Origin: Blasia pusilla
Lineage: Eukaryota
DNA: 64,000 nucleotides
Direction: 5' to 3'
Assembly (NCBI GenBank): GCA_050084515.1
Contig: CM114271.1
Coordinates: 7,936,001 to 8,000,000 of the forward strand
Positions 2,361 through 36,599 of this stretch are shown piece after piece; positions within the stretch are counted from its first letter, which is position 1; each line of letters opens with the position of its first letter. Below the pieces are notes generated by a model. The model ran no database searches and had not been told where the DNA came from. It saw only the letters and a program-made list of their open reading frames with translations. Position numbers and translations under genes: made by a program.

Positions 2361-2582
2361 ACTCGGGGGTCTCACTTCCACGGAAGAGACCCATCACGTA
2401 CGACAAAGTATAGGGTTTTTAAATTCGATTTTGCGGAAGACTTATAAAGTTTTGTGGAAGAACTTAAGGGTATTTTTAATATATCAAAACGCTTATAATA
2501 AAAATAGAGCATGATTAATTCTTCGTTTGTACATGGAAGCTGTTTAAGAAAGTAAGGGGCAGATAAAAAAATAGGAGACAAA

Positions 2583-6700: not shown

Positions 6701-6819
6701 GAAAATCCTATTTGCACCTCAGTTCTGCTCTACTGAGAGAGCAGTGTCCTTACCAGTGTGGCAGCTTTGGGTTTGTGAAGAGAGAGAAAGTATGAATGAA
6801 TGAATGTAGGAGTCATCTG

Positions 6820-8725: not shown

Positions 8726-8999
8726 ACCTATATTCGTGTAATTGATGGAAGATCCACTTTAACATCAATTGATTTAGCAAGTTTGGCCACTAGGTTTTGC
8801 GATTTAGGATTGAGGATTTAGAAGAAAATGTTTGCCCCGTGGTGGCTTTAAACGCAATATCTTAAATTAAGGAGGTGACATCAATGTGTATACTCCTATG
8901 GTGTCCAAAATGCTATAACCTCTCACAAAGAATTGCTTTGGATCTGATCTGTGGTGTTGTATTCTCTGTTGTGGTTTGTATAACAGGTTCCTGTGTGTA

Positions 9000-11900: not shown

Positions 11901-13703
11901 CAAAGAGAGTGCAAGCTTGTTTGCAGGATATGTTTGAGAGAATGGATGTTCGCCATGACAGAAGCCTAGGGACCCAACTATACTTGGAGGTTTTTGGTAA
12001 TTACATTGATATTTTCTTCTCACGTAAGCATGACTTGAGGAGTCGTGCAGTTTTGGCATCTAAAGTGTTGTGGTTCTTTCGACTCTGGAGACTTTGGCTG
12101 AGACATGGTGATCATTCTGTGACAGGGAGTATAGGATCTATGACAGAGAAGAACATGATATCAGTGCAAGCTTTCCATGATATCAACATGTCTTGCCATT
12201 TTATTGTATTACTAATGTGTGCTTTCCGTGACAAGTATCCATACTTGCAAGTTCCATTTCACCTCCTAGGATCTGATTGTTGTGAGATCTTCTTCAACAA
12301 GGTAGGTGGAATGAGTGGCCATGAACGGAACTATGATTTTGGGTCTTTGTTGGATAGTGCAGTGGGGTTGAATAGACTGGCTGGCTTGGAATTTGGACCA
12401 GAAGGATTAAAGATTGGCCGGTCTCATCCAAAGCAAGATCACGTGTGGGAAACTCTCCATCCGTTAGGTATAGGAGAAGATGCTCCTAATCTGTTTGACT
12501 ATTCATTAATTCAGACTAATGAGATGGTAGTTCATGCCCTTAAAGACGGTTTGGATGAAGCAAAATCAATATTGAGCAGGTTAAGTATGTCTCCTAGGTC
12601 CTCTTTGCCTACAGGTCAGAGGCGATGGTGGTTGCATCCACAAGATGTGGAGGCAGAGACGTGGCTTTGATTCTCTTTATTATAAATGAGGTAGTTGCAT
12701 GTGATGACTCTGAGGATTTCGTTGAACATAGACCAACAGTAGGTCCTTGCCCACCCGAGGAGTCTAGAGTTGATGAAACAGAAATTGATAACCCAATGCA
12801 GAGGGATTTCAATAGTCTTGATGCTTGGGAAAGTGATGCACCAACCTCTCTTGAGTTTAGAGTGATTGGTGAGGACTTGGCTGAGGATGCAGATAACAAT
12901 CCATCCATAGAGACAAAAATATTGGGACATGAGGTAAGGCATGTATTCAGTTCAATTCTGCAGGAGTGCACAGATGGAGTTCCTTGTCAAATTGTGCCTA
13001 CTGTGACATTTGAAGGCAAAATATACTACAAGTCCACTTTGGTGAGTGATTGGGCCTGCAATCCTTTCATTTCTAAAGATAGGCTAACACGGATGTCACA
13101 GAAAATATATTACACCACAGGTAAGGTAAAAGAACCAAGTAATCTAGATTGCCCAACTTGTTATGTTGACATTGGAAGTGATGTAGCTATTTTGTTTGAG
13201 TCTACTACACAAGTTGGACCTTCTACTAGATCAAGTAAGTCAAAGAAGAGAAAAAAAAAAAGACTTGGATGAGAACAGAATAGTCCCTAGAAAAGAGTTT
13301 TGGTTAGGTCGCATTCTATTCATCAAACAAAAATACGGTAGTCAATGGGGTAGATGTAGATCTCCTATTGATCTTTTGGACCGACCTGTCCCAAAAGATG
13401 GACAGACAGCGATGTTGTTTGTCGATATTGTGCAATTGGTATCAAGCAGGTAAGAGCAACACCTTGTTCACATATGATGCATGTGATGGCCAATATATAG
13501 ACATTGAAATGGTAATTTCAAATGTGAGCTTGTCCATGAAACCAAGTCTTACATCCAGGATATATGAATTGGATAATAGTGATTTACGAGTGATCAATGA
13601 TTACATCCGCAGCGTGTCGTCTTTTGCCAAGTTATGTGCATGTTATAGTGTGAAGTCATTTTCTGAGTTTATGATAGGCTTGTTTTGGGAGGGGATAGAT
13701 TAG
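9000..13703 (+). pseudogene. P-element/THAP9-like DDE transposase
   Basis: Zn-finger CRVC..HMVSRDH; FVEDET, GHASDGD, DQDAPHNGKKAINPL (DxxH), DRQNW and GSDCCEIFF occur in P-transposase order. GT-AG intron 11133-11226. Stops at 10777 and 11480. Start position approximate. Confidence 0.7.
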
Positions 13704-14142
13704 GGGGATGACGGCGTGACCATATGAGCATCCTGCCCATACAGAGGTTCAATTCCTCTCCGTCATAGGTGTCATAGTAATGGGGAAAGTGGAAGTTGCA
13801 CTAAATATTGATACAATGGAAACATGCAGATAATTCCACCTTACATATCATACTATGTTTGGCAGTGGCTTGGGTATTGCTGAAAGCTTTTGATAGCCTA
13901 TTATCAAGTGCAAAATACAAGACCGCCGCGCGAAGGGTACTTATCTTTACTTTCAAGCCCCTAAACAAATCAAGGACACAAATTTACTTAACAAAATATA
14001 GGGGTCATAATTTTAAAAAAATTGCGATTTTAAAGTAAGTAAGGGGGAGGGAAAAAAAAAATTTCACTTATAAGTTAGGGGTTTCCGACCCCAAAACGTC
14101 GTAGGTGATGTAGGAGGTATACATAGAGTGTCCCCCAGAGGT

Positions 14143-16433
14143 CAGATATCTGCAGCTTGATGAATTTTCGCGCTCAGACCAGATACTTTCTCCCTCCGCT
14201 CCGGCTCGGTCTGGCGCTCTTCTTGGGCTTTGTATCTTTGACCAGCAAAGGATGGTTATGGCTGCATCTTGGGAAATAAACTTATTTGCCCAAGTTTTCT
14301 TTCTTATCTGTGCACCCTTTGCAAGCATCTGATTCACCAGGGCGTCGCCCAAGAACCCCTTGTACTCTGCCGGGTGCGTCGTAAGCACCTTCTTCACCCG
14401 ATCGCAATCTTGGATCCAGTGGTGGGTGACATTCCCCTCCGATACAATCTTGCACATCCAAACTCAACCCGTCAGAAAATTTGTAAGTTACATGGGTTCC
14501 TGCAACCCGTCGGAGTCTGACGGGTCGTCACAGCTCAAGGTCGGATTCTAGCAACGAGCTAAATGATGCAACCCGTCGGAGTCCGACGGATTGCATTCAC
14601 ATTTGTGAATGCTTGGTTTCAACCCGTCGGACTCCAACGGGTTGTCAGATACTCCATATCAAACATGAACATAGCAACCTGTCGGAGTCCGACAGGTTGC
14701 GCAATTGAATGGAAACTTGCAATTTGATGCGAAATTTGCTAAACCAACTTCCGAATGCAACCCGTCGGACTCCGACGAGTTGCTTTCGGCCAAAAACATA
14801 AAAAAAACCTCCAAACAATTTCGAGTCAAGCAACCCGTCGGACTCCAACGGGTTGCTTTGGGCCAAAAACATACTAAACCTGTGGTCAGTCGAACAACTC
14901 GTCGGAGTCCGACGAGTTGCTTTCTTCAAAAAACATCCTGAAAAGGCGCGAGTCGAGCAACCCGTCGGACTCGGACGGGTTGCTTTGGGCCAAAAACTTA
15001 CTAAACTTGTGGTCAGTCGAACAACTCGTCAGAGTCCGACGAGTTGCATTCTTCAAAAATCATCTTGAAAAGGCGTCGAGTCGAGCAACTCGTCGGAGTC
15101 CGACGAGTTGCTTTCGGCAAAAAATAACCTAACACATTCATCAATGAAAATTGAAAATGCGTTTGGCCAAAAGCATCCCAACAACAGTGCCGACCCAAAC
15201 AACTTGTCGGAATCCGACGGTTTGCAGCAAGAAGATACTTACGTGTTCATGGCATGCATTGCCATCTCCACCGTCACCATGTGATGAGGGAATGGATGAA
15301 GGACCACTGCCTTCACGCAAAAATGTGCCTCCAAGGAGTTGGGCCGCTCCTCTGCAAACTTGGTCCACGCCATGAACCTGTGATTTCCATCCCAGATGAA
15401 GAAATACAAATTCCTCATCCAGCTGAATTCCGTGCCCTCTACTTGCCTTCTGAAATCCTGGTCTCTCATCCTCCAGAATGTGTCAAGCTTTTCCAAGTCC
15501 TCCTCCGTAACCAGGGCTTGGGTTCTATGCTCGTCGTAATGCTGAACATAGAAGGGAGGAAAGCTGTCGACATAGGATGCTGTCACCGCCGATTGTTTAA
15601 GCTTCGCGATGTCCTCGTCGGATTGAATTTCGCGGACGTATTCCATTGTCCGCAATCGGCAGAGTGGAATCCTTGGGGCGTTGTGGCCCTCCATGAGTGC
15701 CATCTGCTTTACCACCTGTCAGAACCGGGACAAGATCAATAAGCTACACTAAATTCCCAATGAATTGCAATTCACATAATTCAAAAAACCCAGATCCTAT
15801 CTTACCCGCTCGAAAATTGGGTCAGTTTCTTGACCACCCAACTTGTCTGAGACAGGAGCTGGCGAATCGACTGGGAACTCGTCGATCCGATAGAGGTCGA
15901 TGTCTTCTGCCGGGCTTGGAGACGAGAATGACCGCTCTCCGGCTTCTTCGGCAATGTCCACCATCTCCACGCTGGCGGTCTTCATGACCTCATCGTCCGT
16001 GATTTGAACTTCTCGCGTTTCCGCTATGTTGATTGTGTCCCTGGGCTTCATCGGGGACATTTCCCGCATCTCAACACTTTCGGTTGGACGGGCAGGGCTG
16101 TCATCAATGGCTATCACTTTTTCCCTCCTTGCTTTAGCCAATTATGCTCTCCTCATCAACGCGTTCAGACGCTTCTTTTCTCTCTTTTCGTCGGCGATCC
16201 TTTTCTTCAAGGCCTGCGACGTCTCAGCCTCTGCGTTCTGTCTATCAAGCGCCTCTTGAACACGTCTCGCAAGAAGCTCCTAGTTGTGCATCTCCGCTTC
16301 CCTTTCCCGTTCCTCGATTTCTTGCTGCCTAATTTCATTTGCCGAACGAGGCCGGAGATGCTGACGCAGGAGTCCTAATGGACTTCAGAGTGAAGCTCCG
16401 AGACTTAGTTGCTTGAACTTTTTTCCTCGTCAT
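14143..16433 (-). pseudogene. MULE accessory gene copy 1, 5' part: acidic/coiled N-terminus and ParB/Sulfiredoxin-like domain
   Basis: Likely ATG at 16433. GT-AG exons ~16433-15806 and 15715-15243 (IPLCRLRTMEYVREI...FFIWDGNHRFMAW), plus an exon remnant ~14464-14143. Collinear with copy 2 at 31134-27850. Confidence 0.7.
14465..15226. repeat. Palindrome cluster in an accessory-gene intron, including a ~128 bp tandem duplication
   Basis: About a dozen palindromes; the unit ..ctttgggccaaaaac..tggtcagtcgaacaactcgtc.. repeats at ~14820 and ~14950. Confidence 0.95.
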
Positions 16434-16787
16434 TTTTCCCGGAATCGCTTGATCAAATCGCCTTGCTTATGTCGAGATGAGTTGCCTTGATGGGAAGTTT
16501 GAATCGTCTCGCGATCGTTCAGTCAAACCGTCTCGCTCTCGTTCGGTCAAACCGTCTTGCTCTCGTTCCCTCGTATCGACTCGCGATGACTCGCCGTGTG
16601 AAACGCCCCTTGGTATCTGATCAGCTGCTGCGCGGGAGAGAGAGGAATGGAGATCGCAAAATGAGAAACCGGAAATGAGTGATTTCTGCCCTATTTATAC
16701 TTTTCTAGCCGTTGGGCTGACCGTTCGGTCCCGTCGTCCTTTTGACGATGACGTGTCGGCCGTTACAAAAGTCCGGACGTGAAAAAT

Positions 16788-17095
16788 GGCAACCCGTCGG
16801 AGTTCGACAGGTTGCGCGCCTCCGCCGTCTTCGGACAAGAATGGGACGTACCCGCGCAATCCGTCGGAGACCGTTGGGTTGCACGCTTCCCTCGTCAATG
16901 GTTAACAACGCGGGCTTCCCGCGCAACTCGTCGAAGTCCGACAGGTTGCACACTTCCTTCATGTAAGCGAAACAAGGCGAGGCCCTTGCGCAACCCGTTG
17001 GAGGGCGACGGTTTGCACGCCTCGCCGTCTTTGGGCAAGAAGGTGCAGCACCCGTGAAACTCGTCGGAAATAGACGGTTTGCACGCTTCCTTCAT
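16788..17095. repeat. Palindrome cluster upstream of accessory gene copy 1
   Basis: Palindromes spaced ~62-65 bp apart; homologous to 31500-31950. Confidence 0.9.
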
Positions 17096-17539
17096 GTACA
17101 ACATAAGTTATGGCCGCCTTGAGCGCCGGGTCAATGCCCTAACCAAACATATGGAGCGCGCGGAGGGCCAGGATGGGGCCAATCTGCCTTCGGCTCAAAT
17201 AGCGCCTCGGGCCAGCGAGAACGGCATAAATGTCCCTCACGCCGCCGGCCTGAGATGCGCGCCTAGGCGATCGGTCACCGGTGTAGGTCCTGCGTGAGAT
17301 AAAGTACAAGTCCACGGTGTACTGAGGCTTTTAACTTATCCGGGTTCTACAACAAGGTTTTTTCGTTTTTATTTTCCGTCAAAATGACGTTTTAGCCATT
17401 CATTTTTTCCTCGTTTTTTTTACATCCTTGTGCTTTTGGGTAAGCCCCCGTAAAGCTAAAGAAGCGTCTGAAGGACTACGACCCAAAGGGCACGAGACAC
17501 TTTGTGGGTCCGAGGGACACGGGGCAAAGAAGTGTGCGG

Positions 17540-19772
17540 ACCAGAGCTTGGGAGCTTTCCGGTGTTTCCGAATACTTGGGTGGGGTGATATCATCATCCA
17601 AATCAATCACAGGGTTGGCTCCTCAATGATAATGCTTGACTTGTCTGAAGTCAATGTACTTATGTGGTCTCCAAGAGTCTCGTCCAGACTGCTCTACCAC
17701 CATCTGTATTGGACGTCTTGAAACTCACCCACGAATGTCCCCACTAATGTGGACATCTTCTCAAGAAGAGCTCCGAAAACCCATTGATTGAATGCTTTGA
17801 CATACATTTTCTCATCCCTAGATCTCACTACGGCCCTAACATAGAGTTCATAAATGGATGGGCCTTTTCCCTTGGTTATACCTTTTGTAAGAAATATATG
17901 GGATGCTGCAGATTGTAACATTGCTCTCGCTTGGTCTTGTTGGCATGCCTTCACGAGGGAAATTTTTTGACAAGCTTGTGATGACCTCCAAGATGAATGG
18001 ACACTCTCGGTTCCACTTCTGTTTGGGCACAAGGATTTTTCGTGAATGTTCAATCCCTGCATAGGAAAAATTGCTTGATGAAGTAGAAGTTCGGAATGTA
18101 GAAGAGCAGAAAACTGAGTTTGGCAACTTGTTGGATTCAAACACATTGCACACTTGTGCAACTCGTCGGAATCTGATAGGTTGCATACTCGTCAGACTCG
18201 TCAAAATTCGACAAGTTGAACCATCATGCAATCTGTCGGATTTTGATGGGTTTCCGAACAACAATATTTCCAAGGTCTAAATACGACTGGCCAGTGTTTG
18301 GAAAAATGTCCCAATCCTACACTCTGCACCCTTCTGCAATGTATCGGACTTTGACGAGTTGCATGAGTGTGCAAGCCCTAAGATTCCGACCGGTTGCACT
18401 AGTCTGCAACGCGTCGGAATCAGACGGGTTGCCACTTGTGCTACTTTGAGGAGACAACAGTTAGCATCTCTTTGCGACTTGTCTGCTTCCGACTGGTTGC
18501 ATCATTGTGCAACCCCTTAAAATCTAACGTGTCTCCACTTGTGCTACTTTGAGGAGGCAACAATTATCATCTCTCTGCAACTTGTCTGGTTCCGACTGGT
18601 TGCATCAATGTGCAACTTGTCGGAATCCGACGTGTTGCCATAGGTGCAATCCATCGGAACCGATAGTTTAGAGTTTTCTCCAATCTGTCAAATTCGAACG
18701 GGTTGATGTTAGACTTTGAACCTATTAGATTCAAACGGATTGCCAAACACCAGTATTTACAACCTGCTGGATTCATACGACTTGCAACTAGACGGAATGA
18801 AACCATAGCAGATGTGAGCTAGAAAGGGCAAAATATTTAACTCACATGGCGTATAAAGTTTCCTCATTGCCTCAAATGAATCATCCACCAACTCAACGAG
18901 GAACACAATTCTTTATATTTCCCTTCAATTGCATGCTTCCGCCACTACACATGAAGTTCTTCTTTGCACTCCATGGCTTGCTTCAAGGTTCTGCTCTCCT
19001 TGCATTTTTGTAGGAGAACAACGTGCTCCGTTCTCTTATTCTTCTTGATGCAAGATTTTGTGTATCGTGTCACAGATTGTTGCCAATGGAATGCATCCGA
19101 CCTCTCCCTTTCTAGTTGAGCTTCACCTCCCCATAACACCTCCCGGAAAGTAATCTAACTCGGGCATTGTCCGCCATGAATCCATAAATTTCAAGGGGTG
19201 GCCTTTTGTTTACCTTGACCACCTCTAGTAGGATTAACCAACAAATCTTCAAGCTTCCAACATCTTCTGCTTTTACCTCACAAAAAAATATGGTTTTTAG
19301 GCCCTTCTCCACATGGTCATAGACGTGTGCACCCATGGTCAACCATCCATTCAAAACCCTGTAGCAAATATCAAAACTGACCCAGCTCCCAAATAGATCT
19401 TCTCCCTCCCTCATTCTGTCAATAAGATCAAGACCATTGAATGGCCTTGTAGAAGACATTTTGAATACATACGCCGTAGATCCCTCACCTCCTTGACCCA
19501 TGAATTTCCATCTCTAAATAAATGGAAACCTAGAGTTTGCTTTGATCCTGGCGATGGCATTCATCTCTGCGGTTTTTCCATCAAGTATTCATATTCGCCG
19601 TAGCCAATTCCTCATGCATTCAAGATATGCCAGAAAGGCAAGATTCTCCTAGAGTTGTCTCTCCTCAGCAACTATGATCTCCCTTTGGCCAGGTATTCTA
19701 AGTAGTTGATCGTAGATTTGTGATGACGTTGCCAGTTTGATCACTCTAGGCTTAGATCCCTGAACTTGGTCT
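17540..19772 (-). pseudogene. Mutator-like transposase copy 1 (same family), truncated
   Basis: YVFKMSS..WVSFDICYRVLNGW..FMADN, ERSDAFHW, SGTESVHSS and NPVIDLDDDITPPKY all match 33381-35200. Intron 18845-18057 is at the same position as in copy 2. Interrupted by a LINE at ~19775. Confidence 0.8.
18120..18795. repeat. Degenerate palindrome cluster in the transposase intron (copy 1)
   Basis: Multiple gcaac..tcgga.tccga..gttgc variants confined to intron 18057-18845. Confidence 0.85.
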
Positions 19773-23295: not shown

Positions 23296-24239
23296 GGAAT
23301 GGTGGATGGGAAGGATATTACCAACCCATCCATTGAGGCAGTTTTTCACAATTGTGGAGGACTATTCTCGTTGGGGCTGGTATTCTGGCAAGAGAGAGGA
23401 AGAGAGGAGAGTCTCTCTTAAAAAAAAGGGCAGAATCCGCCTCCTCTCTTCAAAACTTTTTGACATACTTGAAATTTTTGTTTGCTTTAAAATACAAGAA
23501 ATCTTTAGAAGAGAGTAGCAAGTGGACCACATTCGGGCCTAAAGTAACCTCCTTTTTCCAGGGGACGAAAAACAAGTAGACATCATAAGACCACTACAAA
23601 CATTCTTCCATCACTCTCCATGTGAGCCTAAGTTTCTTCACATTTCCTGTCTCACTCTACATTAAGTTGTGCCCAGGGGAATTTTTAACTACTCTAACTA
23701 TGGTCTCAATAGACTCTGGTGCCCTTCAAGGTTTAACTTCTCGGAATATGTGGTTGACATTATGGATTGACATCTCTTCTTGCAAAAGGCATAAAATACT
23801 CCTCAAAAAGGGACAAAAGAAAGGCAAAAGGAAATGCCTTTAAATGATTGTTGACTCTTCTTGCAGAAGGCATCAATACTCATCCATAAGGGGGTTTTCC
23901 ACAACAGAACAAATCGCTCGTCACTCATGGTAGCCTTAGACTTTAATTACATCATTTGATGATGTGGGCTCTTGAATGGGTGCACAAAGCATACCATGGA
24001 CTGCTGTGCATTTGAAAACTTGGTTTCACCATTCTCTCTGCCATTGAGAAATGTGAACACACGAGACGACAATTGAACCAAAAGATTGAGAGCTGTCTAG
24101 AGTAAAGAGGAACTGATAAAAAAGAAAACGTGATAAGACGAGACGACAATTGAAGTAAAAGATATTTAGCTGTTAGGAGTAAAGAGGAACAAACGCACCC
24201 ATGTCCCTTCATTCAGATCCTAAATTTGTGAATCCAAGA

Positions 24240-24660
24240 AGTTGCACCCCTCCCAACCTGTCGGAATTTGACAGGTTGCAACTCTTGCAACCCGTCGGAA
24301 TCGGATGGGTTGCACCCCTTCCAAGCAAGATCACCATAACAAAAGAAGGATTTTGAGAAGTGATTCCATTCCGCCTTGCACCCCATGAGAAATCCAACAG
24401 GTTGGGAGTCCCAAATGGCAATCCGACAGGTAGTAGGAATCCAACATGTCTTAGAGAAGAGAAGAAGCCTACGACTGATTTGACGATAATATGGGAACGA
24501 GCCAAAAGTGAAGAAGCTCGCCATAATGCCTCAAAAGCTAGACTAATAGGAAAAGAGTTCAATCACTCAAGCAACCAACCTATCGGAATCCGGCAGGTTG
24601 CGTGAAAGTGGTTAAAATATTGTGAGAAGTTGCAACCCGTCAGAATCTCATGGGTTGCAG
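24240..24660. repeat. Palindrome cluster
   Basis: e.g. caacctgtcggaatttgacaggttg and gcaacccgtcggaatcggatgggttgc. Confidence 0.85.
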
Positions 24661-25841
24661 AATAAAAAGTCTGAGTAGATAAACCAACACAATCGACAAG
24701 ACCAAAAAAGATATTCAGCAAGATTTTACAAACACCATCATGGATCAAAAAATTCTTGTCCTTTATTACATCCGAGGGAAGCTCGGAATTGTTCATTTGA
24801 TCTAGTCTATGATTTCTTCAGCCTCGTAATCTACAAATCTACTCCTAACTCTCCTAGGTTCCTGTACAAAAGGAATGTCTTGGGATACAAGTGGCTCCTC
24901 TAGCCGATTGTAGACGGGGATTGCAAATGTTGGGGAATTCGAGAGCCTTGACCCCCCCCCTACCCCCCCCTAGGTACACCATAACGGTCCCATGTAACCT
25001 TATTTGAGTCTCACCGCCTTCCTCGGCAGTAAATCTTGCATGCTCTGCAAGGTGACACCCATCCACTATCAATATGTGCTCTGTCCTTGGAAACCAATAA
25101 ATCCCTACTCCAAAACGCTTCAGTCAAGTTGGGTCCTTTAGTTCTTTGAACTCACTCGTCATCGTCCGAGAGCTCTTCCATAATTACTGTCGGCCTTGCC
25201 CTCCCGATTTTTGGAATAGTCGGAAGTGACGATGGTGTCATTACCAATAGTGGGTCTGGAACCGGAGCTCTCGGCTTTGGAGGAGATTTGTATGCTCCAA
25301 CTAGCCTGTCGTAATATGCCTTTGCCTCTTTGCAAAGGTCATAAAGTTCTTGCCTTCCCTCAAGGCAGAGAATGTTCCTGCCACTCTGCCAGGCGCCTCT
25401 GATACTCGCCCTTGATAGGCCCACTAAGTCGAACACCAAGTCACCCGGCCTTGAACAGAGCTCGATGAGTGTTTGCATCAAGGCATGGGACTTTTCCCTT
25501 CCTCCAAGTAAGGGGGTCCTGTCTTGCATGTAAATTCCCGGGGGGGGGGGGGGATTTGTATAAACTATTTAAGCTGTACCCATCGGAGCATGGATCGACT
25601 CGATCCAGGATTTGGAACACCTGGAAGTTATGCTCGGGCCTTACAAACTTACAAAATAGTAAACAAAGGAGTGGTCCATGTGTAAAGAAGCAGGTTGGAA
25701 ACAATGTCAGCAAAATGAAAGAGCTACTTGACAAGTGGTCTACTCTCAATATGGTGACACAATGTGCAACACGTCCATAGTGCATTCTAGTCCCTGTTGA
25801 TTGCCAACCCATGAGAACTTGGCCTAAAGTCCTAACAGTAG

Positions 25842-26092
25842 AGCAACCTGTCAGAGTCCAACGGGTTGTTTTACAAGTGTAATTTTTTTTTTCCATGAGC
25901 AACCCGTCGAAAGCCGACATGTTACTGGCTTAGAGCAATCCGTCACTTTCCGACGGCTTGCACTCACTCAATGGAGACTTGTGGTAAATTTGCAACCCGT
26001 CGCTTTCAGACGGATTGCAACACCGTAGCCACAAGCTCTTAGGATCCGATGGGTTGCATGCACAGATGCAACCTGTCGGAGCCCGATGGATG
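25842..26092. repeat. Palindrome cluster in an accessory-gene intron (copy 2)
   Basis: Same intron as 226-535; about six palindromes. Confidence 0.9.
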
Positions 26093-28204
26093 GAATTTGG
26101 ATTAAGAGCCCTTACCCGAACTTGACTCGTCGCCGATCGGAGTGGATACTCATTCTTGATGACCCATGATTGCGTCGTCCTCCACTTCAGCAACCTCTTC
26201 ATGCACTGATGGTTGAAGAGCTCGTCCTTGCTCCCTCCAGTCAAGACCAAGAAACAACCCCTGTCACTCAGATAAGCGTCAACAAAAGAAAACAAGAGCG
26301 CGATCAGGTGATAGGTAAGAGGGACATTCCAGTATAAGACAGTGTCAAGGATTGTTTTCCCACAAGCAAAACCCAGAGGGAAAATCTATGATGAGGAGAT
26401 CCAACGCCACCTCCTCAACCACCCCATGGATCGTCTAAGGAGTGTGCCCGTTTCGTTGAAGTTTTCGTCCCAGCATGGTCAATTTGTCGATGGCGGGTGT
26501 CGACTCCTGGGAACTGAAACTTTGCAGCTCATCCACAAAATTCTTGAAGTGAATGAGGACATTTTTCTTGGTCATTGTTTCTCTATGTCTTCCCAAGGAT
26601 GATGGAGTATATTCCACATCCTTATATGCTCCTCGGGATGAACCACGCGCCTCCCGCTTTTGCTTCTCCTGAGTCTGCAGTCGGCTTGTGGGGGTCTCTA
26701 TAACTTCAGACTCGACTAGAGTTTTCTTGGCGGAGGACCCGGTCCGGCCCTCTCGCCCCACTCGCCCGGACGATTCCGCCTCTCACCTTGAGGTCTCAGC
26801 CTCTTTTCTGGACGAGTCGGCCTCGGAATTCTTAGATCCCCTCGCCTTTCCTTTCAGACCCGCTGTAGATTTGTCCTTGGCGGTGAATACCTTGGAGACC
26901 AACTCCGCTGTCTCGAGGGTTTGCTCCTTTGCATCTCCTTCGAAAAAATCTTCAAGCTGCACGAAATTCAGAATGTCGTCCCTAAACGACCACTGCATCA
27001 TACACCTGGCGTAGATTTTTTTCGGTTATGTCCTCAGGGTCGTTGAAGTCCAACCAGATTGGGCAATTTTCAACCTCCCAATCGGACATGCCCTGTGCCA
27101 TCTCCATGTCGTACATGGAAAATTCCTCTCCATTAGGCGGAGAAGCCCACAATTTGCAGGATGCTGGTATTTTTTGCCAGGTACTTGCATTCTTACAATT
27201 GATGAGGTATCTATACACCATTCGTTGGGTAGCTCTTTGTCGAGATGAATCAGCCCCCTGCTCCTGAAGATCCCGCTTCTTCTTTGTGAAATCTCTTTGT
27301 TTGGCCTCAATTTCTTCATCCAGGCCTGCTTGAGGGAGGATGTGATTCTTCAACATCATCCTAAAGCTTGGGTTTTTCGTGGGCTTGTCTCAGATGTCAT
27401 CAAGCCATAGTTCAAAATCTTCTGCACTCTCGAGGTTTGCTTCCTCCGGAACTGGCTCTATCTTCTTCAGCTCCGCGCGAAGACCCACAAGCATGGACTT
27501 CCCGAGAAGCCGCAACGCGTCCCAGAATGACCATTCACGTAGCCAATGGGAGATCATTGGATCATAAACTCCCGAACGATGGTGTGCCGCCCTCTTTTGG
27601 GCCTCTGTGCCCTTGAGATTGATTTTCATCGATCGGATTCTCCTAAACTCGGAAATTCCAGACAGTGCAAATCTGTGAATGCGGTCCAAAGATACTTTCT
27701 CGCCAATCCAACATTGGATCTTCGTCTCTCTTCTGCTGGCGCTTGATTATCGCCTTGAGCTCCTTGTAGAATTCCGGGCCACGTTCCGAGTTCAAAATGG
27801 CAATGTTGTGCTGCATCTAACTTGCACTGTACTTCGTAGCTGCAGATACTACAGCCTGGATAAACTTTGCACCTTTAGACGCAGACACGTTCTCCCTTCG
27901 CTCCAGTTCCAATGAAGCACTCATCTTGACGGCCTGGATCTTCGACCAACAAAGGATTGTGACGGCTGTATCTTGGGAAATGAAGGTATTTGCCCAAGTC
28001 TTCTTTTTAACTTGAGCCCCTTTTGCCAGCATCTCATTTACCAGATGGTCGCCCAAGAACCCCTTGTTCTCTGTCGGGTGCATCGTAAGCACCTTTTTCA
28101 CCCTCTCGCAATCCTGGATCCAGTGGTGGGTGACGTTCCCCTTGGATATAATCTTGCACATCCAAACTGTCGCGCCCCTACTCTCCTTGAACGTCAATCT
28201 TTAG

Positions 28205-29165
28205 TGTTGCGAAGCATACGTTCACTAGGTCACGATCTCATCGCCGATCTGTACCCAAACACGCACTCTCATTAGTCGGGTCTCGCCAACCAGCGTTCCA
28301 ACCCACCGGGTTCTCAACTCGGCGTCTCATCAAGCTCAACCTTCCTTAGTTCCGAGTTTCCAAAACATGGCAAGTCCTTCAAGACTTGGAACAGACTTCC
28401 TGGTTAGTCCAGAGATCTGCAACGGCACCCGCACGCCTAGCGATCCCAACTGTTCAACGGTCCTCGTGTGAGTTCCAAACCAAGACCCAATTAATTGAGT
28501 CGCGGGGTGGAATCCAAGAGGGATGTCTAAAATCACCTCAATAGACTTGGTGCAGGTTTTCCAACCCAACCCCCAAACTCGCGTTCCGTTCCATGCCCTT
28601 GAGCCGCCCCACGGCGCCCAAAGTGGGGTTCAGGTTCCAAGCACTCTCGGAGACCTTCCCCCTTACTAGTACTTCTGGGTTTCTCCACACCCCCCTTTTG
28701 GAAAAGGAGGGTCGGGCCCTTCATTGTGGCCTTCAACCCGACTCCACTTATAGTCGTTTCCGGGTTTTTTCTCAGCCACTGCTTATGCGTTTGCAAAGGT
28801 CTTTAGTGCATTTGAACTGGCTTTCCACAAGCTTTCCAACGCACTCTTATTCAATCCAAACGCATCTTGGCGCTAAAAGTTATGGTTAAAAATACAGTCG
28901 GAAACTCTCAAACGCTAGTGGCGTTCCAAATCCGGATTCTTCCTTTTGGCAACCCACTTTCTAGACTCGACTTCTTTCAAGTCTCATTCCACGTTTGGTC
29001 CAGGTTTCTTGGTCGCGACCACAACATCTGAAACACGAAGCCTCGCTCGCGTCTCGTCTCTTGTCTCCTCTTCGAGACTACTCCAACGCGCAAACCATCT
29101 TAGCGTGAACCCGCTAATGTTCTGATGTTCCGCTTGGCACTCGTTTGGTCATGAGGGTCGCGACA
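28205..29165. mobile_element. Solo LTR (~960 bp)
   Basis: TG...CA ends with inverted termini TGTTGCGA / TCGCGACA. Absent from copy 1. No matching TSD. Confidence 0.6.
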
Positions 29166-29199
29166 CAAATACACGCTAAGAATTATTGCAAGCTACAGG

Positions 29200-29905
29200 G
29201 TTCCTGCAACCCGTCGAACTCCAACTGGTCGCAACACATGGTTGTCAAAATATAAGCACAGAGAAAAATATTGCAACCCGTCAGGGTTCGACAGGTCGCA
29301 ACACCTTTTTTTCTGTTACACTTATTGCAACACTCACGCAAATTTTTAGCGATAATTGCAACCCATCGGAGTCCGACAGATTGCACCCGGATTTATGATT
29401 GTCTGATTATAACCCGTCAGACTCTGACGGGTTGTAACTCAGAGAATGGTTTCCGAAAAAAAATTGCACATATCAACCCGTCAGAATCCGACAGGTTGCG
29501 CAATTTTTAGTATAGCTGGAATTGGACGCCTAAAAGCAAGCTCTCCTACTCCGACCACCTACCCGTGGTGGCAAATGCAACCTGTGGGAGTCCAAAAAGT
29601 TGCTTTCGGCCAAAAACATCCCAAAAATAGCGAACAATCCATCAACTCATCAGCAACTCGTCAGACTCCGACGAGTTGCTTTAAGGCGTCGGATGATTTG
29701 TTACAACTAGTTTAACAACTCGTTGGAGTCCAACGGTTTGCATAACATATACATCATGCACTCATTTTTACACCCGTCGATGGTGAACTCGTTTCGATAT
29801 CCCGGCTTTCTCTGGTGTGCTTGGCCACCAAGAAACCCGTCGGACTCCGACGGTTTGGTTGAAGCTTTCCAATTATGCAACCCGTCTGACACCGACGGGT
29901 TGAAG
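29200..29905. repeat. Palindrome cluster in an accessory-gene intron (copy 2)
   Basis: Same intron as 14465-15226. Confidence 0.9.
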
Positions 29906-31499
29906 CAATCAAAATTAAGGAAGAGGAAACTTACGTATTCATGGCATGCATTACCATTTCCACCGTTGCCATGTGATGAGGAAATAGATGGAGGACGACT
30001 GCCTTAACGTAAAAATGTGCCTCCAATGAATTTCGGCGATCCTCTACAAACTGGGTCCACGCCATGTACCTGTGGTTTCCATCCCAGATGAAGAAGTAAA
30101 GGTTCCGCATCCAGCTAAATTGCGTCTCCTCAATCGCCCTTCTGAACTCCTGATCTCTCATCCTCCAAAATGTATTGAGCGCTTCCAAGTCCTCTTCCGT
30201 CACCAGCGCTTGGGTTCCATGTTCATCGTAAGGCTCAACATAGAACGGAGGGAAGTTGTCGACGTAGGATGTTGTCGCTGCCAACTGTTTCAACTTTGCA
30301 ATATCCTCCTCCGATTGAATTTCACAGACGTACTCCATTGTCCGCAATCGGCAAAGTGGAATTCTTGGGGCATTTTGGCCCTCCATTAGTGCCATCTGCT
30401 TAACAACCTGCCACAATGGGGACCAAGTCAATAAACTACACTGTTTTGCCAATAAATTTCCTCATGGGCCTTCACATAACTCAAACGTTTCTTACCTACT
30501 CAAAGATTGGGTCGGTGTCTTGGCCCGCCAAGTGCTCTAGGACAGCAAGTGGCAAGTCCACATGAAACTCATCGATCCGATAAAGGTTGATTTCTTCGGC
30601 CGGGCTCAAAGACGAGGAAGATTGTTCTCCTGCTTCTTCAGAGATGTCCACCATCTCCACGCTTGCCATCCTCATGACCTCATCGTCCGTCACTTGAACT
30701 TCGGCCGTTTCCTCAACCGATTTTATATTCATGGTGTCCCCAAACTTCATCGGGAATATTTCCTCCATCTCAACACTCTCTGTTGGACGGGCAAGGCTTT
30801 CTTTGATGGCAATTGCTTTTTCCCTTCGAGCTTTTGCCAATTCTGCTCTCCTCACATACGCGTCTAGACGCTTTTTCTCACGTTTCTCGTCCGCGACTCT
30901 TTTCTTCAAGGCGTGCGATGATTCAGCCTCGGCGTTTTGTTTTTCAAGTGCCTCTAGAACATGTTTTGCAAGAAGCTCATGCATGTGCATATTTGCTTCC
31001 CTTTCCTACTCCTCTATCTCTTGCTGCCTTATCTCATTGGACGAACGAGGCCCTGGAGATGGTAACGCAGGAGTCCTCATGGACTTGGGAGTGATGCTCC
31101 CTACCTTGCTTGCTTGCATTTTTTTCCTCATCATGGTTCCCGTCAATGCTTCCTCCTCGACAGTCTAGACTCTTTCTGTGCACGAAAATTCCCTCAAATG
31201 GTCTCGCGATGAATCGCCGTGACCCTAGATTGTGCACGAAAATTCCCTCGAATGGTCTCTCGATGAATTTCCGTGACCCTAGACCGCCGTGACCGTTTCG
31301 TGATGAAGCGCCCTCATCCTCCTCACCCCCCTTGGTATCTGGTCAGCTGCTGCGCGAAAGAGCACATGAAATCGCGAAACGAAAAATGGAAGTGAGCGAA
31401 ACCTCGGATATTTATACTTTTTGAGCCATTGAGCTTACCGTTGGGTTGCATTGTCGTACTGATGGCGACGTGTTGGCCGTTATGGAACTTTGGACGTGG

Positions 31500-32372
31500 G
31501 AACCCGGCCAACCCCACGGTCTCTGACGGGTTGCAAGCTTCCCGCATCTTGGGGATCCAGGGCGAGTTGCCCAAGAAACTTGTGCGAGACCCATGGGTTG
31601 CACGCATCCGTCCTCCTCGGGTAACAAGCCGAACTACACTGGCAACCCGTTGGAGACCGACAGGTTGCACGCCTCCCCCGTCTTGGGGTAACAACGCGAG
31701 GGACCCGCGCAACCCGTCGGAGACCGGGGGGTTGAACATCTCCCCCGTTTTGGGGTAACAACGCGAGCTACCCGCGCAACCCGTCGGAGGCTGACGGGTT
31801 GCACGCTTCCTTCATGTTGGCATTCCAAGGCGAGGTACCCGTGCAACCCGTCGGAGGTCGACGGGTTGCACGCTTCTCTCATCTTGGGGTTACAAGGAGA
31901 GGCACCCGGGCAACCAGTCGGATACCGAAAGGTTGCACGCTTTTCTCTCCCTCAGGTAAAAATGCGACAAAGCATAGTTCCAAGGCAACCCGTTGCCCTC
32001 CGATGGGTCACAAGGTCTACCCGGAGTTGGACACTTCCCAACATACGGCAAAACTACACTCACGGTTTGCACGGTTAATTGACTAAGAGAAATCGACTCG
32101 AGATGCAAAAGGAAAAGCAAGGTTAGGTACCTTTGGATCCCGTAAAAATCCCCAACGGGTTGCTGTAGCAAATCCATGCGAAGTCTCGTGTTTGATGTTA
32201 GCAATCTCGACTCAAATCACATTGGTCAGAAAAGAAGGGGGTATCAACCCAACGGACTCCGACGGGTTGCAACTCGCATTGGGACACTAACAAAAAATGA
32301 AACTCTGAGCTTCGCAACCCACGTATTTGATTCCCAAATTCTGCAACCTATCGGACTGCGACAGTTCCAACA
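31500..32372. repeat. Palindrome array in the divergent intergenic region
   Basis: Tandem ~65-67 bp units, each with a palindrome (..cttggggtaacaacgcgag..cccgcgcaacccgtcgg..). Confidence 0.9.
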
Positions 32373-32556
32373 CGATTGAATCCATTCCGTCAGAAAATCT
32401 CACCTACCAAACAGCATCTTGTCAGTCAAATTCTGTCAGGAGAATCTAAGTCGCTATTCACTATATATTAAACATTCTCATTCACATTCTCATTCTCATT
32501 CCCATTCTCATTCTTATTCTTAATCTCAGTCTCCTCCCGGTGGAATCTTCTCGAAT

Positions 32557-35500
32557 GGATAATTATGTGAAGCTCACTTGTGGCAGTCATCGAGCGGCCC
32601 TTCCTCAATCAGAAATAATTCGACCATAAGCTTGTGAGTCTTTCATACCAATGGATGAAAATTTTCTCTCAGTTCGATTTCTTCTCCAAATTGGAACCAT
32701 CTTTGTGTCCAAGGATGTTAGGGTGGACAGTACAGAGGACATAATAGGTGAGACAGTCAAGCCAGTGATTGCTGACCGTAAAGTATGGAATCTCCTACCT
32801 CTAGCAAACGATCAATACAGAGTTTACGGCTTGCCTCTGAATTTCTCTGTTTCCCAAGTAGATGGTCGAGAATTTCCTAGTGCACCGAGCTCTACGTTTG
32901 CAACTCTGAGCTCAATAGATCCGGCATCGACTCCAACTTCACATGTTCGTAACAATGTTGTACTTCCTGAAGACATTCCGGATGTCGTCAACCTCAGCCT
33001 ACTCGTTCCTCTTACGAGTATCAGGCAATAGTTTGCTATCGTCTCTGCCCTTTAAAATTTTCAAGCACATTCTTGTCGATGAGGTGCCGCCCACGTACGA
33101 TGGTAATTGCATTTTTGAGTTGCCTCCACTTGCTGCTCCTGCTCAAAAGAAAGATGGTGGACGCTTGAGGGGTATGGACAGAAAGTCTAATTGTCATCGA
33201 TGGTGCAGGCTTCAACGGACTAGTGCTTCAATTCCAGATGGTCCTTGGATTGTCTCCTGCCGCCAATTGGTTGGAGCCTTGGAGTGTAGAAGTCCAGCAT
33301 GCCCGTATCTAGAGCGCAATGGGTGAGTCAATACGTCGCAATTCCCCCCCAAGAATGCAGAAACTCCACATGAGGTCGGTGTGACCATACCACTGGGAGG
33401 CCATCGATGTCCTCATTGTCAAGCATTCCCTTTCTGCGTTGGAGCGTGTCATGCATACATATTTTTCATTGTCCACGACTTCAGTTCTACGTCAGAGTAC
33501 ACAAGGCTGGCAGTTCATGTTGGCTCCCACACTCATCCTGTGACCGGTGCAGAACTTACCAAAGGATCCAAGACTTATGTCTTCAAAATGTCAACGACAG
33601 GACCATCGAGTGGCCTCGATCTTATAGATCGAATGAGGGAAGGGGAAGATCCTTACGACAACTGGATAAGCTTTGATATTTGCTACAGAGTGCTGAATGG
33701 ATGGTTGACCATGGGTGCTCACGTTTATGACCATGTGGAGAAGGGACTCAAAACTATATTTTTTTGTGAAGTAAAAGTAGAAGAGGTTGGCAGTTTGAAG
33801 ATGTGTTGGTTACTCTTTTTGGAGGTGGTGAAGGAAAACAAAAGGTCACCTCTGGAAATTTATGGGTTCATGGCGGACAATGCACAACCTGGGTGGATTG
33901 CTATCAGGGAAGTGTTCTGGGGTGGAGAGGTTCAACCGGAGAGGGAAAGGTCGGATGCTTTCCATTGGCAATAGTCTGTGACCCGGTACACCAAATCTTG
34001 CATCAAGGAGAATAAGAGGACAGAGCATGTCACTCTACTCCAACGCTGCAAGGACATCAAAACCTTGAAACAGGCCATGGAATGCCAAGAAGAACTTCAT
34101 GGGTGGTGGAGGAAGCATGCGCTTGAGGGGAAGTACAAAGAGTTGTGCTCTTGGCTGAGTTGGTGGACTGTACGAATCAGACAGTGGGGAAACTTCATGC
34201 GGCAGGTGAGTTCACTATTTCGTCTTGTCAAGCTCAGGTTGAGAATTATTTGAAAAGTTGTAGCTCAAGATGAGAAGCGTGGGCACTATAGGGATTTCAA
34301 ACCGAAGAAACCAAGCAACTTGTCGGATGCGACAGATTGCCCGGGTGTGCAACCCGTCGGAAACAGACAGGTTGCATCAAGAATCTTGGTGCAACCCGTA
34401 TGCAAGTCGCATGTATACAAGGCATGCAAATAGTTCGACCCGGATGGGTTTCGGATGACTTGCACTTGGATCTTCTAGCCCAGAGTGGCCATAGGTTCTT
34501 GCAACGTGTCAAAATTCGACGGGTTGCAGTAGGTGGTTACTGGGTATTGCAACACGTTGGGACTCGATGGGTCGCAGAGTCATTCATGGGATGCCTTTGA
34601 CTTGCAACCCGTCTGGTTCCGATAGGTAGCTTTTTTCTCTGACTTTGGAGCTATTTTGGTTCCCTTCTCACATTGCCGTCGTTGCAGGGATTGAACATTC
34701 ATGAAAATGTCCGCTGCCCCAACACGAGTGGAGCAGAAAATGTTCATTCCTCCGAGAGGTCATCACAAGCATGCCAAAGAATTTCCCTTGTGGAGGCATG
34801 CCAACAAGACCATGCAAGAGCAATGCTACAGTTTGCAGCATCCCATATCTTCCTCACAAAAGGCATAACGAAAGGAAGGGGGCCTTCGATGTACCTCTAT
34901 GTCAAGGCCGTTGTGAGATTGGGTGATGAGAAACTCTATGTGGAAGCCTTCAATTGGTGCGTAGCAGGAACTCCCCTTGAGCAAGACGTACACATTGGTG
35001 GGGATATTCGTGGGCGCGTTTCAAGACGTCCCATACAGATGGTGGTAGAACAATCCGAGCGAGACTCGTGGAGACCAGATAAGTATCTTGACTTCAGGCA
35101 GGTGAAGAGGCAACATCGAGGAACAAACCCGGTGATTGATTTGGATGAGGAAATCACGCCGCCCAGGTATTCGGAGACCCCGGATTCCTCCCAAATCTGT
35201 GATGCAGTAACTTCTCCAAAATCAGTGAATGTTTTATTTCAAAAGCCCTCCGTTGCTGGAAGTTCACAACATCTGGTCGTTGGGATGGTTCAACAATATG
35301 GGATTCCGGTCATTGAGGTAGATTGCAACCTCAAATGGTGGCATTTATCTCAGAGAAACCCTGGATATGGACCCACTTGCAGGGCAGGATCTGATGGCAT
35401 TAGGAGAGCATGCGGCACTTTCCTAAATAAGAATTGTACAAGGACTAGACGACCATTGCCTGGATTTTGGGGACTCAAAACCTTTGATCGTTTCACGAGG

Positions 35501-36179
35501 ACTAGGGATCAATTGAAGTACTTCTTCTGCCCAAATGAATCTTCCACTTTTTGGAAGTCTTATCCGGCTGCCATTGGAGCTCCAAGGAATACCCCCATGA
35601 TTTGGCCCATTTCCGCAGGTACGAATTGCACTCAAGACGAAGTGGACAATCTTACAAGTGTCGGTTTCAAACTCGTAGATGGAGGAAGTTTGGAGCATGT
35701 TTGCATTACAAAGACCTTCGCATTTCATATTCAACCCTGTCAACATGTACCCGGAGAAGGTGGATGATCTCAATCCACTATTTCTATTTGAGTCTAGAAA
35801 TGGGGTGAAGAGAAACAGAATGTCCAGGCCAATGGTGGAGAGAGCAAAGTAAATTGCATCAGCTCGGGAGGCAAAAATGGAGATCATCGCCACGAAGGAT
35901 GTCCAGAGTGGCAATGGAATAGGAAGGATGTATTTGGTCAAGAACAACACTATAGATTCAAGTGTCACAGGGGTGTATGTGGTGCACATCTGTTGCTTTC
36001 CCACATGTTCATGTGATGACTTTGTCCAAAGAGAGACAAGTGGGAAAAGGTATTTCCCTTGTAAGCACATGTACTATGTGTTGCTTGTAGTTTTAAGAGA
36101 GTCGGAGGTAGGAGTAGGAATCCACCAACCAATTTTGTCCCTCAAAGAAGTGCAAAGTATTTTAAACAAACCACTTTGA
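32557..36179 (+). pseudogene. Mutator-like transposase copy 2: N-terminal GCM/WRKY-like Zn domain, DDE core, C-terminal SWIM finger
   Basis: GALECRSPACPY..CPHC..C..HVGSHTHP; WISFD; FMADN; DAFHW (CxxH position); TSGAENVHSS (E); CSCDDF..PCKH (SWIM). GT-AG intron 34206-34687. Confidence 0.8.
34313..34632. repeat. Palindrome cluster in the transposase intron (copy 2)
   Basis: Degenerate copies inside intron 34206-34687. Confidence 0.85.
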
Positions 36180-36599
36180 GGATGCAAAATGAGGTTTTAG
36201 ATTGTACTTTCATTTTCCAGAACCTTCACTTTGAGGTTGAACTCTATTAAGCCCAAGGCAAATGATAGATTTTTTCCAGACCTTGGATGGAAAAAGTGAT
36301 TGGTTCCACACTTATGATTCCACTCATTTTTCAGTTTTCTAAATTTTGTGCAATTAGCAACTCGTTGGACTCAGATGAGTTGCCAAAATGTGGAAGAGGA
36401 AAAACAATTGTGGGAGTGCTTAAGAACTTAGCAGAAAAGTGGAAAATAAATCACACAAAAAGTTTCCTCTCTTCAACCCAACGAAAACTCTCTTCTAATC
36501 ACAAGAAACTCTCTTAAAAAAAAGTATATTTTTTGGTTGAAGGTAGTTTCCTCTCTCCTCTCTCCTCTCTTCCTCTCTTCCTCTCTTCCTCTCCTCTTA

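Follow-up and report, generated by a model that had tools for sequence, protein, structure and literature searches.

The 64,000-nucleotide stretch of Blasia pusilla DNA analyzed here (contig CM114271.1, positions 7,936,001 to 8,000,000; hereafter the window) is transposon-rich eukaryotic DNA, and it contains two old, now dead copies of one land-plant DNA-transposon family. In copy 1, which occupies ∼24.2-36.4 kb, a spliced accessory gene on the minus strand lies head-to-head with transposase-like open reading frames (ORFs) on the plus strand (32651-36179), and members of one palindrome family lie in the non-coding parts of both genes (Table 1). The accessory gene has multiple exons that run from ∼31050 down to 25152. 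Its splicing is indicated by canonical GTAAG donors, which directly follow three exon ends in both copies. A preliminary description of this DNA had proposed a spliced gene of this kind, encoding a ParB/Srx-like domain with the sequence WDGNHR and a beta-class methyltransferase-like domain. The exons, the conserved donors and the full-length alignment with a protein of the liverwort Riccia sorocarpa bear out that proposal.

Copy 2 consists of positions 1-2361 and 14143-19483. Both genes recur there at 77-80% nucleotide identity to copy 1, in agreement with the two occurrences that had been noted previously. An 11.8-kb insertion splits this copy, the start of the window cuts it off, and the transposase segment, part of which is missing, has the opposite orientation to that in copy 1. 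A transposase of one type thus adjoins the accessory gene in two of the two copies in the window.

The accessory gene has accumulated several stops and frameshifts per copy, at differing sites in the two copies. In copy 1, the middle region (26624-27846) carries one in-frame stop, a frameshift near 26989 and one more stop, and the minus-strand exon at 26110-26440, with the motif IV-like sequence LLIIDFPSG, has a frameshift near 26348-26361. The ParB-like ORF (29931-30452, minus strand), which spans 173 codons and contains FIWDGNHRYMAW, is intact. Comparison of the two copies gives ratios of nonsynonymous to synonymous divergence (dN/dS) of 0.13-0.24 for six segments of the accessory gene, with synonymous divergence (dS) of 0.67-1.09; for the clean part of the transposase core, dN/dS is 0.12 and dS is 1.10. 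The low dN/dS values and the similar synonymous divergence therefore show that both genes evolved as functional genes, under purifying selection and over a similar span, before the two insertions decayed. Their similar divergence fits one element lineage carrying both.

Table 1. Positions of element parts in the window (ParB, methyltransferase and transposase assignments are predictions)
Feature	Position	Strand	Remarks
Copy 1, palindrome cluster downstream of accessory gene 3' end	24239..24660		3-4 units
Copy 1, last exon	25152..25568	-	methyltransferase motifs X-I-II-III; motif I = FDLVGLSRAS
Copy 1, palindromes, last intron	25840..26095		5 units
Copy 1, methyltransferase-like N-terminal half	26110..26440	-	motif IV-like IDFPSG; GTAAGG donor at 3' end; dN/dS 0.14
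Copy 1, middle region	26624..27846	-	~Riccia residues 440-740; dN/dS 0.23-0.24
Copy 1, exon 3	27931..28167	-	82% amino-acid identity to copy 2; dN/dS 0.14
Copy 1, palindrome array, intron 2	29200..29905		~10 units, 45-117 bp apart
Copy 1, ParB/Srx-like exon (WDGNHR)	29931..30458	-	reading frame intact; GTAAGT donor
Copy 1, first coding exon	30490..31050	-	charged, low-complexity N-terminus; dN/dS 0.18
Copy 1, intergenic region between gene heads	31500..32370		67-bp tandem array (6.2 units, one palindrome each) plus two more palindromes
Copy 1, transposase N-terminal and catalytic exons	32651..34253	+	D...D...DxxH pattern (by eye); in-frame stop 33975-33977
Copy 1, palindromes, transposase intron	34335..34631		4-5 units
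Copy 1, distal transposase exons	34673..36179	+	SWIM-like zinc finger at 35877-36179
Copy 1, last degenerate palindrome	36358..36384		LINE-like ORF begins ~150 bp beyond
Copy 2, accessory gene 3' part	1..2361	-	palindromes 225-533; methyltransferase N-half 571-960 (ADLPSG); middle region 961-2418
Insertion splitting copy 2, not part of element	2362..14142		without palindromes
Copy 2, accessory gene 5' part	14143..16441	-	exon 3 14227-14463; ParB-like exon 15239-15766; first exon 15797-16351
Copy 2, palindrome array in accessory gene	14501-15226		64/127-bp tandem
Copy 2, 67-bp palindrome array	16603..17097		5 units; homologous to 31325-31817
Copy 2, transposase remnant	17548..19513	-	inverted vs copy 1; palindromes 18157-18640

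The palindrome has the perfect 29-bp consensus TGCAACCCGTCGGA-N-TCCGACGGGTTGCA. Allowing up to 6 substitutions, we find 56 sites in the window and none in 20 block shuffles; the 27-bp pattern GCAACCCGTCGGANNCCGACGGGTTGC gives 65 strand matches at ≤3 mismatches, compared with none in 100 shuffles. A single palindrome family in the non-coding parts of both genes, as previously claimed, is thus confirmed. All 56 sites are non-coding and fall inside the two copies (225-18611 and 24252-34603), whereas the 11.8-kb insertion, the sequence separating the copies and everything past 36400 are free of them; within the window, the palindromes are thus restricted to the element. They occupy the last intron, the intron behind the ParB-like exon, the intergenic region that separates the two gene heads, a transposase intron and the 3' flank. 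The clusters lie at matching places in both copies, with unequal numbers of units, and form tandem arrays with periods of 67 bp (6.2 units), 64/127 bp and 103 bp. The 14-nucleotide arms are kept at 70-100% per position. Among the departures from consensus, 108 of 232 are C>T or G>A, a pattern that may reflect the decay of methylated cytosines. Two 54-bp direct repeats (31177-31283), 92% identical, immediately precede the first exon of the accessory gene, beside the palindrome array.

Predicted domains of the encoded proteins

Structure prediction for the ParB-like exon, using an alignment of 95 sequences, yields an AF2 model with a pLDDT of 90 and a pTM of 0.84. When this model was compared with 48,161 representative PDB chains by VIA-align, all eight chains with Z≥5 were ParB/Srx-type or ParB-like by title, including KorB (Z 7.7), PadC (7.7), sulfiredoxin (7.2), a serine kinase (6.5), the N-terminal domain of pNOB8 ParB (6.2) and SbnI (5.5). 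The best Z of 7.7, over 94-95 residues, is middling on the tool's own scale, where values below 8 are so regarded. The top rows of a Foldseek search are likewise ParB, Noc and Srx, at E values of 0.02-0.4, with none at E≤1e-3. The WDGNHR sequence is present in both window copies and fits the G-x-x-R / DGxHR pattern of the superfamily's nucleotide-binding loop; across the 95 sequences, conservation of its G, N and H reaches 90% or more, and D-G-N-H-R is invariant or nearly so across 12 sequences. We take this loop to be equivalent to the GERR box of ParB. Neither Pfam ParBc nor ParB_N matches the window exon, for which DUF1015 alone was reported (E 6e-4 and 0.032, below its cut-off), and 22 of 23 homologues scanned against Pfam have no family at E≤0.01, the remaining one (P0004) having DUF1015 alone at E 0.0056. 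Searches of PDB sequences with the ParB exon and with the profile of its alignment (A1; 0 matches) returned nothing useful. The first domain is nonetheless confidently modeled, and is predicted to adopt the ParB/Srx fold.

For the C-terminus, the evidence comes from motif order, profile scores and a fold search. The ORF within the last exon (25152-25529) aligns with positions 165-220 of the 221 in the Pfam profile N6_N4_Mtase (PF01555), its C-terminal quarter, at E 0.0056 and 17.1 bits, below the curated cut-off. Riccia members of the family match the same profile at E 9e-6 to 5e-5 with 24-26 bits, such that P0133, at 26.2 bits, falls close to the cut-off of 26.7, and P0142 has a precomputed PF01555 assignment. 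The last exon was also found by a hidden Markov model (HMM) of the family's methyltransferase region, which was itself built with this window sequence included. In an alignment of family members (A2), motif IV comes before motifs X-I-II-III at the C-terminus, the permuted order of the beta class. A low-confidence structural model (pLDDT 57, from 16 sequences) gives 55 Foldseek matches at E≤1e-3, with root-mean-square deviations of 7-16 Å. CcrM leads (E 7e-7), followed by M1.HpyAVI, MboIIA, BceJIV, RsrI and the rotifer enzyme N4CMT, whose structure from Adineta vaga (8s9m) appears at E 5.8e-4. A PDB sequence search with the Riccia protein P0136 gave as its best relevant match the putative modification methylase 2zie, at E 2.2. 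Of the two folds anticipated in the preliminary description, the ParB/Srx fold is thus recovered from a model with high pLDDT, while the methyltransferase matches depend on one with low pLDDT. Motif order, near-threshold Pfam scores and the fold search together suggest a C-terminal domain of the beta-class amino-methyltransferase type.

The catalytic motifs of this domain are unusual. The canonical tetrapeptide of amino-methyltransferases is (D/N/S)PP(Y/F/W). In this family, motif IV reads DFPS or DLPS in the window, DLPT, DMPS or DMPT in Riccia, DVPF in a fern and DIPE in the metagenome locus L002. Motif I is IDFAGGWGAT in Riccia, where G-W-G is present, LDWNASTGT in L002 and FDLVGLSRAS in window copy 1, where both glycines are lost. 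The motif IV exon nevertheless has a dN/dS of 0.14 between the two copies, so the domain is constrained yet non-canonical, and enzyme activity is doubtful because of the non-canonical catalytic motif. Judging from these motifs, a writer of N6-methyladenine (6mA) or N4-methylcytosine (4mC) in DNA is an unlikely identity for the domain; a module that binds S-adenosylmethionine or DNA is more likely than a standard 6mA/4mC writer. Between the two terminal domains, the middle region matches no Pfam family, and no helix-turn-helix was identified.

The transposase appears to be Mutator-superfamily-like, an assignment that rests on the D...D...DxxH pattern recognized by eye, a weak SWIM match and a lead from the ESM Atlas; no curated model confirms it as a Mutator-like element (MULE) transposase. 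The SWIM match, in the distal ORF, has an E value of 0.004 and 17.1 bits against a cut-off of 19.6. The nearest named ESM Atlas clusters carry MULE or ZSWIM RNaseH-like domains and have scores of 0.83-0.88, which lie below the tool's 0.9 line and serve as a lead only. Two transposase homologues, P0150 (678 amino acids) and P0151 (660 amino acids), were recovered at 50% identity; a PDB sequence search with P0150 returned nothing useful. A MULE transposase head-to-head with the accessory gene had been described previously. The opposed ORFs of copy 1 agree with this description, whereas MULE identity lacks curated-model support and the transposase of copy 2 is inverted.

Relatives in land plants and comparable systems

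When 1.84 billion representative proteins were searched in full by HMMER with the ParB-like exon as query, 132 scored E≤1e-3, the best at E 3e-19 and ∼31% identity; a word-indexed protein search had found no longer relatives of this exon. Sources were checked for 20 of the 132 relatives, of which 13 are from Riccia sorocarpa and 3 from the fern Adiantum nelumboides. Relatives of the accessory protein are full-length in the liverwort, for example R1sor_027256 and R1sor_007218, and partial in the fern. The Riccia protein P0135 (1207 amino acids) aligns to the window exons over its entire length, and the gene is multi-copy in that species, with 33 distinct locus tags. Four Riccia members (P0133, P0135, P0136 and P0141) carry the UniRef name "Trimethylguanosine synthase". 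We reject this name as a likely error of annotation: the three members scanned against Pfam, P0133, P0135 and P0136, match N6_N4_Mtase but no cap-methyltransferase model, and the motifs follow the permuted order of beta-class DNA amino-methyltransferases.

The nearest ESM Atlas clusters to P0135 are two from streptophytes (scores of 0.95 and 0.93), followed at 0.82-0.83, as a lead only, by phage clusters that combine ParB_N with N6_N4_Mtase. A tblastn search with P0135 against 50,697 phage records gave no match at E≤0.01. Such phage and plasmid fusions have the same domain order as the window protein, with the ParB-like domain first and the beta-class methyltransferase last. They differ in size, however, since members of the listed clusters are 370-530 residues long and lack the ∼600-residue middle region. 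These enzymes typically carry a canonical DPPY.

Other known systems share single aspects of the element. VANC of Arabidopsis VANDAL21 is an anti-silencing accessory protein of a Mutator-type element, and a short motif is amplified in that element's own non-coding DNA; a preprint on the red alga Bostrychia also cites this case (10.1101/2025.02.11.637652). To our knowledge, VANC has no ParB or methyltransferase domain. The likeness thus lies in the combination of a Mutator-type element, an accessory protein and an amplified motif, and we claim no relation of sequence or fold. Bdelloid rotifer N4CMT and Marchantia MpDN4MT1 have a beta-class N6_N4 fold, as is predicted here, but both are encoded by host genes, and 4mC activity has been demonstrated for them; the term "ParB" does not occur in the text of the Marchantia 4mC preprint.

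Closer parallels come from algae. In the brown alga Ectocarpus, the 21.5-kb Sola1 element Sola1-1_Ec32 encodes an accessory protein of ∼1,100 residues with ParB-like and DNA methyltransferase domains, on the strand opposite to the transposase, and the authors propose that this protein binds and modifies its own element (PMC12477816). The passages of that paper on the accessory protein do not mention palindrome arrays (PMC12477816). The window element differs in its land-plant host, its Mutator-like transposase and its non-canonical motif IV, and the likeness is one of description rather than of sequence. Among red-algal Plavaka (EnSpm/CACTA) elements, PAG2 is described as combining PF01555 with SET, and PAG3 as joining a ParB-like N-terminus to a 2-oxoglutarate oxygenase; tandem inverted-repeat arrays lie beside PAG3, and self-binding is proposed (10.1101/2025.02.11.637652). 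Homologues of PAG2 and PAG3 occur in Mutator elements of Chondrus crispus, and in that account accessory genes move between transposon superfamilies (10.1101/2025.02.11.637652). There the domains are divided between two proteins, whereas the window protein is a single fusion; here also the comparison is by description, not sequence, and Pfam finds no SET or oxygenase domain in the accessory protein family. ParB-HTH-fused Dam-type enzymes are also described in chlorophytes and chytrids (Iyer et al., PMC4738411).

The combination had been thought undescribed, a view that does not survive these accounts: as far as their passages on accessory genes go, ParB-like and methyltransferase accessory genes, and inverted-repeat arrays next to ParB-like genes, have been published for transposons of brown, red and green algae (PMC12477816; 10.1101/2025.02.11.637652). 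Our literature searches on ParB together with Mutator-like or MULE elements, methyltransferases or accessory genes found no land-plant case, with subscription papers and supplements outside the search. Whereas transposon-encoded ParB-like and methyltransferase accessory proteins had been noted in algal genome papers only, the window reveals the same kind of gene in land plants, with carriers in the liverwort Riccia, the fern Adiantum and the organism of the window. The element is a land-plant member of this recently noted class, characterized by a single fused polypeptide, a link to a Mutator-like transposase and, in this lineage, a very clean palindrome family.

Further relatives of the ParB-like exon, at 21-50% identity, were collected by a metagenome scan (alignment A3) that yielded 63 loci totaling 622,663 bp, many of them short, decayed or one sequence from several samples. 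Pfam analysis of 143 ORFs from 10 loci reveals retrotransposon domains, DUF7869, zf-CCHC and a bacterial solute-binding domain, and nothing else. In L018, the DUF7869 domain (16633-17013; E 7.6e-24) lies 6.3 kb downstream of the ParB-like exon on the same strand, and may belong to another transposon superfamily linked to a ParB-like gene. Palindromes other than that of the window occur once or twice per locus, not in arrays. One of these is a different palindrome of ∼35 bp, with the core GGAGTCAAA ... TTTGACTCC and flanks GGTCGG/CCGACC, which is present in 14 loci (L009, L014-L016, L018, L019, L028, L029, L033, L035, L040, L044, L048 and L052).

Possible roles of the accessory protein and the palindromes

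The best overall explanation, which we consider about evenly balanced between right and wrong, is that the window holds dead copies of an element with a divergently transcribed Mutator-like transposase, a ParB/methyltransferase-like accessory protein, and palindrome arrays in a shared promoter and introns. Anatomy, predicted folds, homology, selection and co-location are the observations on which it draws. The autonomous element would carry two divergently transcribed genes, one for a Mutator-superfamily-like DDE transposase with a SWIM finger and the other for the accessory protein, and its shared promoter region and several introns would carry the 29-bp palindrome arrays. As part of this same evenly balanced explanation, the accessory protein is predicted to have ∼1,100-1,200 residues, with a ParB/Srx fold at the N-terminus, a long helical middle and a beta-class amino-methyltransferase-like domain at the C-terminus.

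It is with respect to function that we infer beyond these observations, be it binding, methyl transfer, or an effect on silencing or transposition. The accessory protein might recognize the palindromes and assemble, on the element that encodes it, a complex of protein and DNA comparable to those formed by ParB at parS, by TnpA at the subterminal repeats of En/Spm and by VANC at VANDAL motifs. Such a complex could either shield the element from silencing or help the transposase to find and pair the element. Of the mechanisms considered this is the likeliest, though somewhat doubtful.

Several observations weigh against the overall explanation. Pfam MULE (PF10551) matches neither the window ORFs at E≤10 nor P0150 and P0151 at E≤1. 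A blastn-short comparison of 22501-25200 with 35701-37000 reveals no terminal inverted repeats, just simple-sequence matches of ≤19 nucleotides, and no target-site duplication was found; the element ends are undefined in these flanks, where a LINE-like ORF abuts the right side of copy 1 and copy 2 runs off the window. The genes are head-to-head in only one of the two copies, and both copies are pseudogenes. Among the 63 metagenome loci, tblastn detects a P0150-type transposase in four. In L025/L026 and in L039 it lies upstream of the ParB-like gene on the opposite strand, head-to-head, an arrangement seen in 3 of the 33 loci whose upstream sequence extends to 3 kb or more; in L032 it is ∼9 kb downstream. 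Searches of the 63 with jackhmmer, using P0150 and P0151, add no further loci. The methyltransferase HMM matches one locus of the 63, L002, where ParB-like and methyltransferase exons share one strand within 3.9 kb, and the HMM of the middle region matches none. The window palindrome has no match in the 622,663 bp, and arrays of short-spacer palindromes are absent from all five loci examined (L001, L002, L007, L026 and L039). These absences are weak evidence, because the contigs are short, the exons small and the sequences decayed, yet they give no support for a universally conserved three-part system. The protein itself raises further difficulties. In true ParB, the ParB/Srx domain serves as a CTPase clamp and does not itself read parS, and the methyltransferase-like domain is represented by a low-confidence model. 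Its motif IV has the form D-x-P-[S/T/F/E], without a second proline and, except in the fern, without an aromatic residue, and its motif I differs between lineages, with GxG lost in window copy 1. The three parts put forward as a system in the preliminary description are co-located in both copies of the window, with palindromes at matching positions and constraint on both genes, but the palindromes and the transposase linkage are mostly missing from the related loci.

An alternative is that the accessory protein is an active amino-methyltransferase, tethered by its ParB-like domain, that writes 6mA or 4mC on or around the palindromes and so provides a transposon-autonomous epigenetic mark. The beta-class matches of the (low-confidence) model, the G-x-G loop retained by Riccia members (IDFAGGWGAT), the dN/dS of 0.14 for the motif IV exon, and the aspartate and single proline of motif IV kept in all lineages seen are consistent with such a writer, and the authors of algal cases propose the same function in their account of the accessory protein (PMC12477816). 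Conversely, in place of the Y, F or W found in known enzymes as the fourth residue of motif IV, the window, Riccia and L002 have S, T or E; of the two prolines, the first is replaced everywhere; motif I diverges strongly between lineages; and the Pfam scores lie at or below the curated cut-off. On balance we consider an active writer to be improbable, although a serious candidate. The earlier suggestion that the methyltransferase marks the element's own DNA is correspondingly doubtful, because motif IV is non-canonical family-wide and the GxG loop is lost in the window copy.

It is also conceivable that the palindrome arrays have no relation to the ParB-like protein, being instead internal or subterminal repeats bound by the transposase, or a hairpin-prone satellite expanding by slippage in the tolerant non-coding parts of one lineage. 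The tandem organization (periods of 64, 67 and 103 bp), the different numbers of units in the two copies, the lack of the window palindrome and of comparable arrays in related ParB-like loci, and the fact that the N-terminal domain of true ParB does not read sequence would all fit such an origin. Conservation of cluster positions at a dS of ∼0.7-1.1 argues otherwise, as do arms kept at 70-100% per position, which exceeds the expectation for neutral decay at such divergence, and the pairing of inverted-repeat arrays with a ParB-like accessory gene also described for red-algal elements (10.1101/2025.02.11.637652). We therefore judge unrelated arrays to be unlikely. Far less probable still is a captured host gene or passenger without a role for the element, as in Pack-MULEs. 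Plant MULEs often capture host fragments, and few related loci link the gene to a P0150-type transposase. However, a passenger would hardly be expected to persist as a full-length gene with conserved introns and a dN/dS of 0.13-0.24 between element copies, to be multi-copy in Riccia (33 locus tags), and to resemble the transposase in synonymous divergence; a homologous architecture is moreover reported for algal transposons of other superfamilies (PMC12477816).

A bolder version of the favored explanation, that of an element whose accessory protein acts on its own palindromes, would have land-plant Mutator-like elements run a system in the style of ParB and parS. The accessory protein would load onto palindromes in the bidirectional promoter and introns and, through its divergent S-adenosylmethionine-dependent domain, lay down an unusual mark, be it 6mA, 4mC or methylation of something other than a base, that sets the element apart from host DNA and counters silencing. 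We regard this version as quite improbable; if true, embryophytes would have an epigenetic writer that is encoded by a transposon and equipped with address tags of its own. The non-canonical catalytic motif advises caution in this respect, as the "methyltransferase" may not methylate DNA at all. The element-restricted palindrome nonetheless provides a concrete candidate binding site. Riccia sorocarpa, moreover, appears to hold intact full-length copies, which brings the idea within reach of bryophyte genetics, DNA affinity purification sequencing and long-read methylation calling.

Other features of the window

The 11.8-kb insertion in copy 2 contains plus-strand ORFs at 8009-8725, 9613-10779, 11486-12670 and 12625-13272. 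The first of these encodes a PHD_NSD zinc finger (E 2.9e-7), and no Pfam family was found for the other three. The insertion probably represents a further large DNA transposon or a gene cluster that was captured. Elsewhere, positions 53912-60467 on the plus strand hold another set of transposase-like genes, unrelated to the first. It includes a BED-finger-like ORF (53912-54751; E 0.004) and two ORFs (58449-59141 and 60024-60467) that have a SWIM-like CxC...CxH ending and no Pfam matches. This set has no match to the P0150 profile, no palindromes and no ParB-like gene listed alongside.

ORFs resembling those of long interspersed nuclear elements (LINEs), identified by eye only, border both element copies (36533-37700 and 20069-20401). 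No Pfam match was obtained at E≤0.1 for those at 36831-37310 and 37349-37690. The sequence right of copy 1 contains LVGDFNGRT, which resembles an endonuclease motif, and beyond copy 2 lies a reverse-transcriptase-like ORF. On the minus strand, the GC-rich region at 38205-46000 (52-53% GC) has a strong negative GC skew and retrotransposon-like ORFs, of which the one at 38205-38996 has the look of an integrase-type zinc-binding domain.

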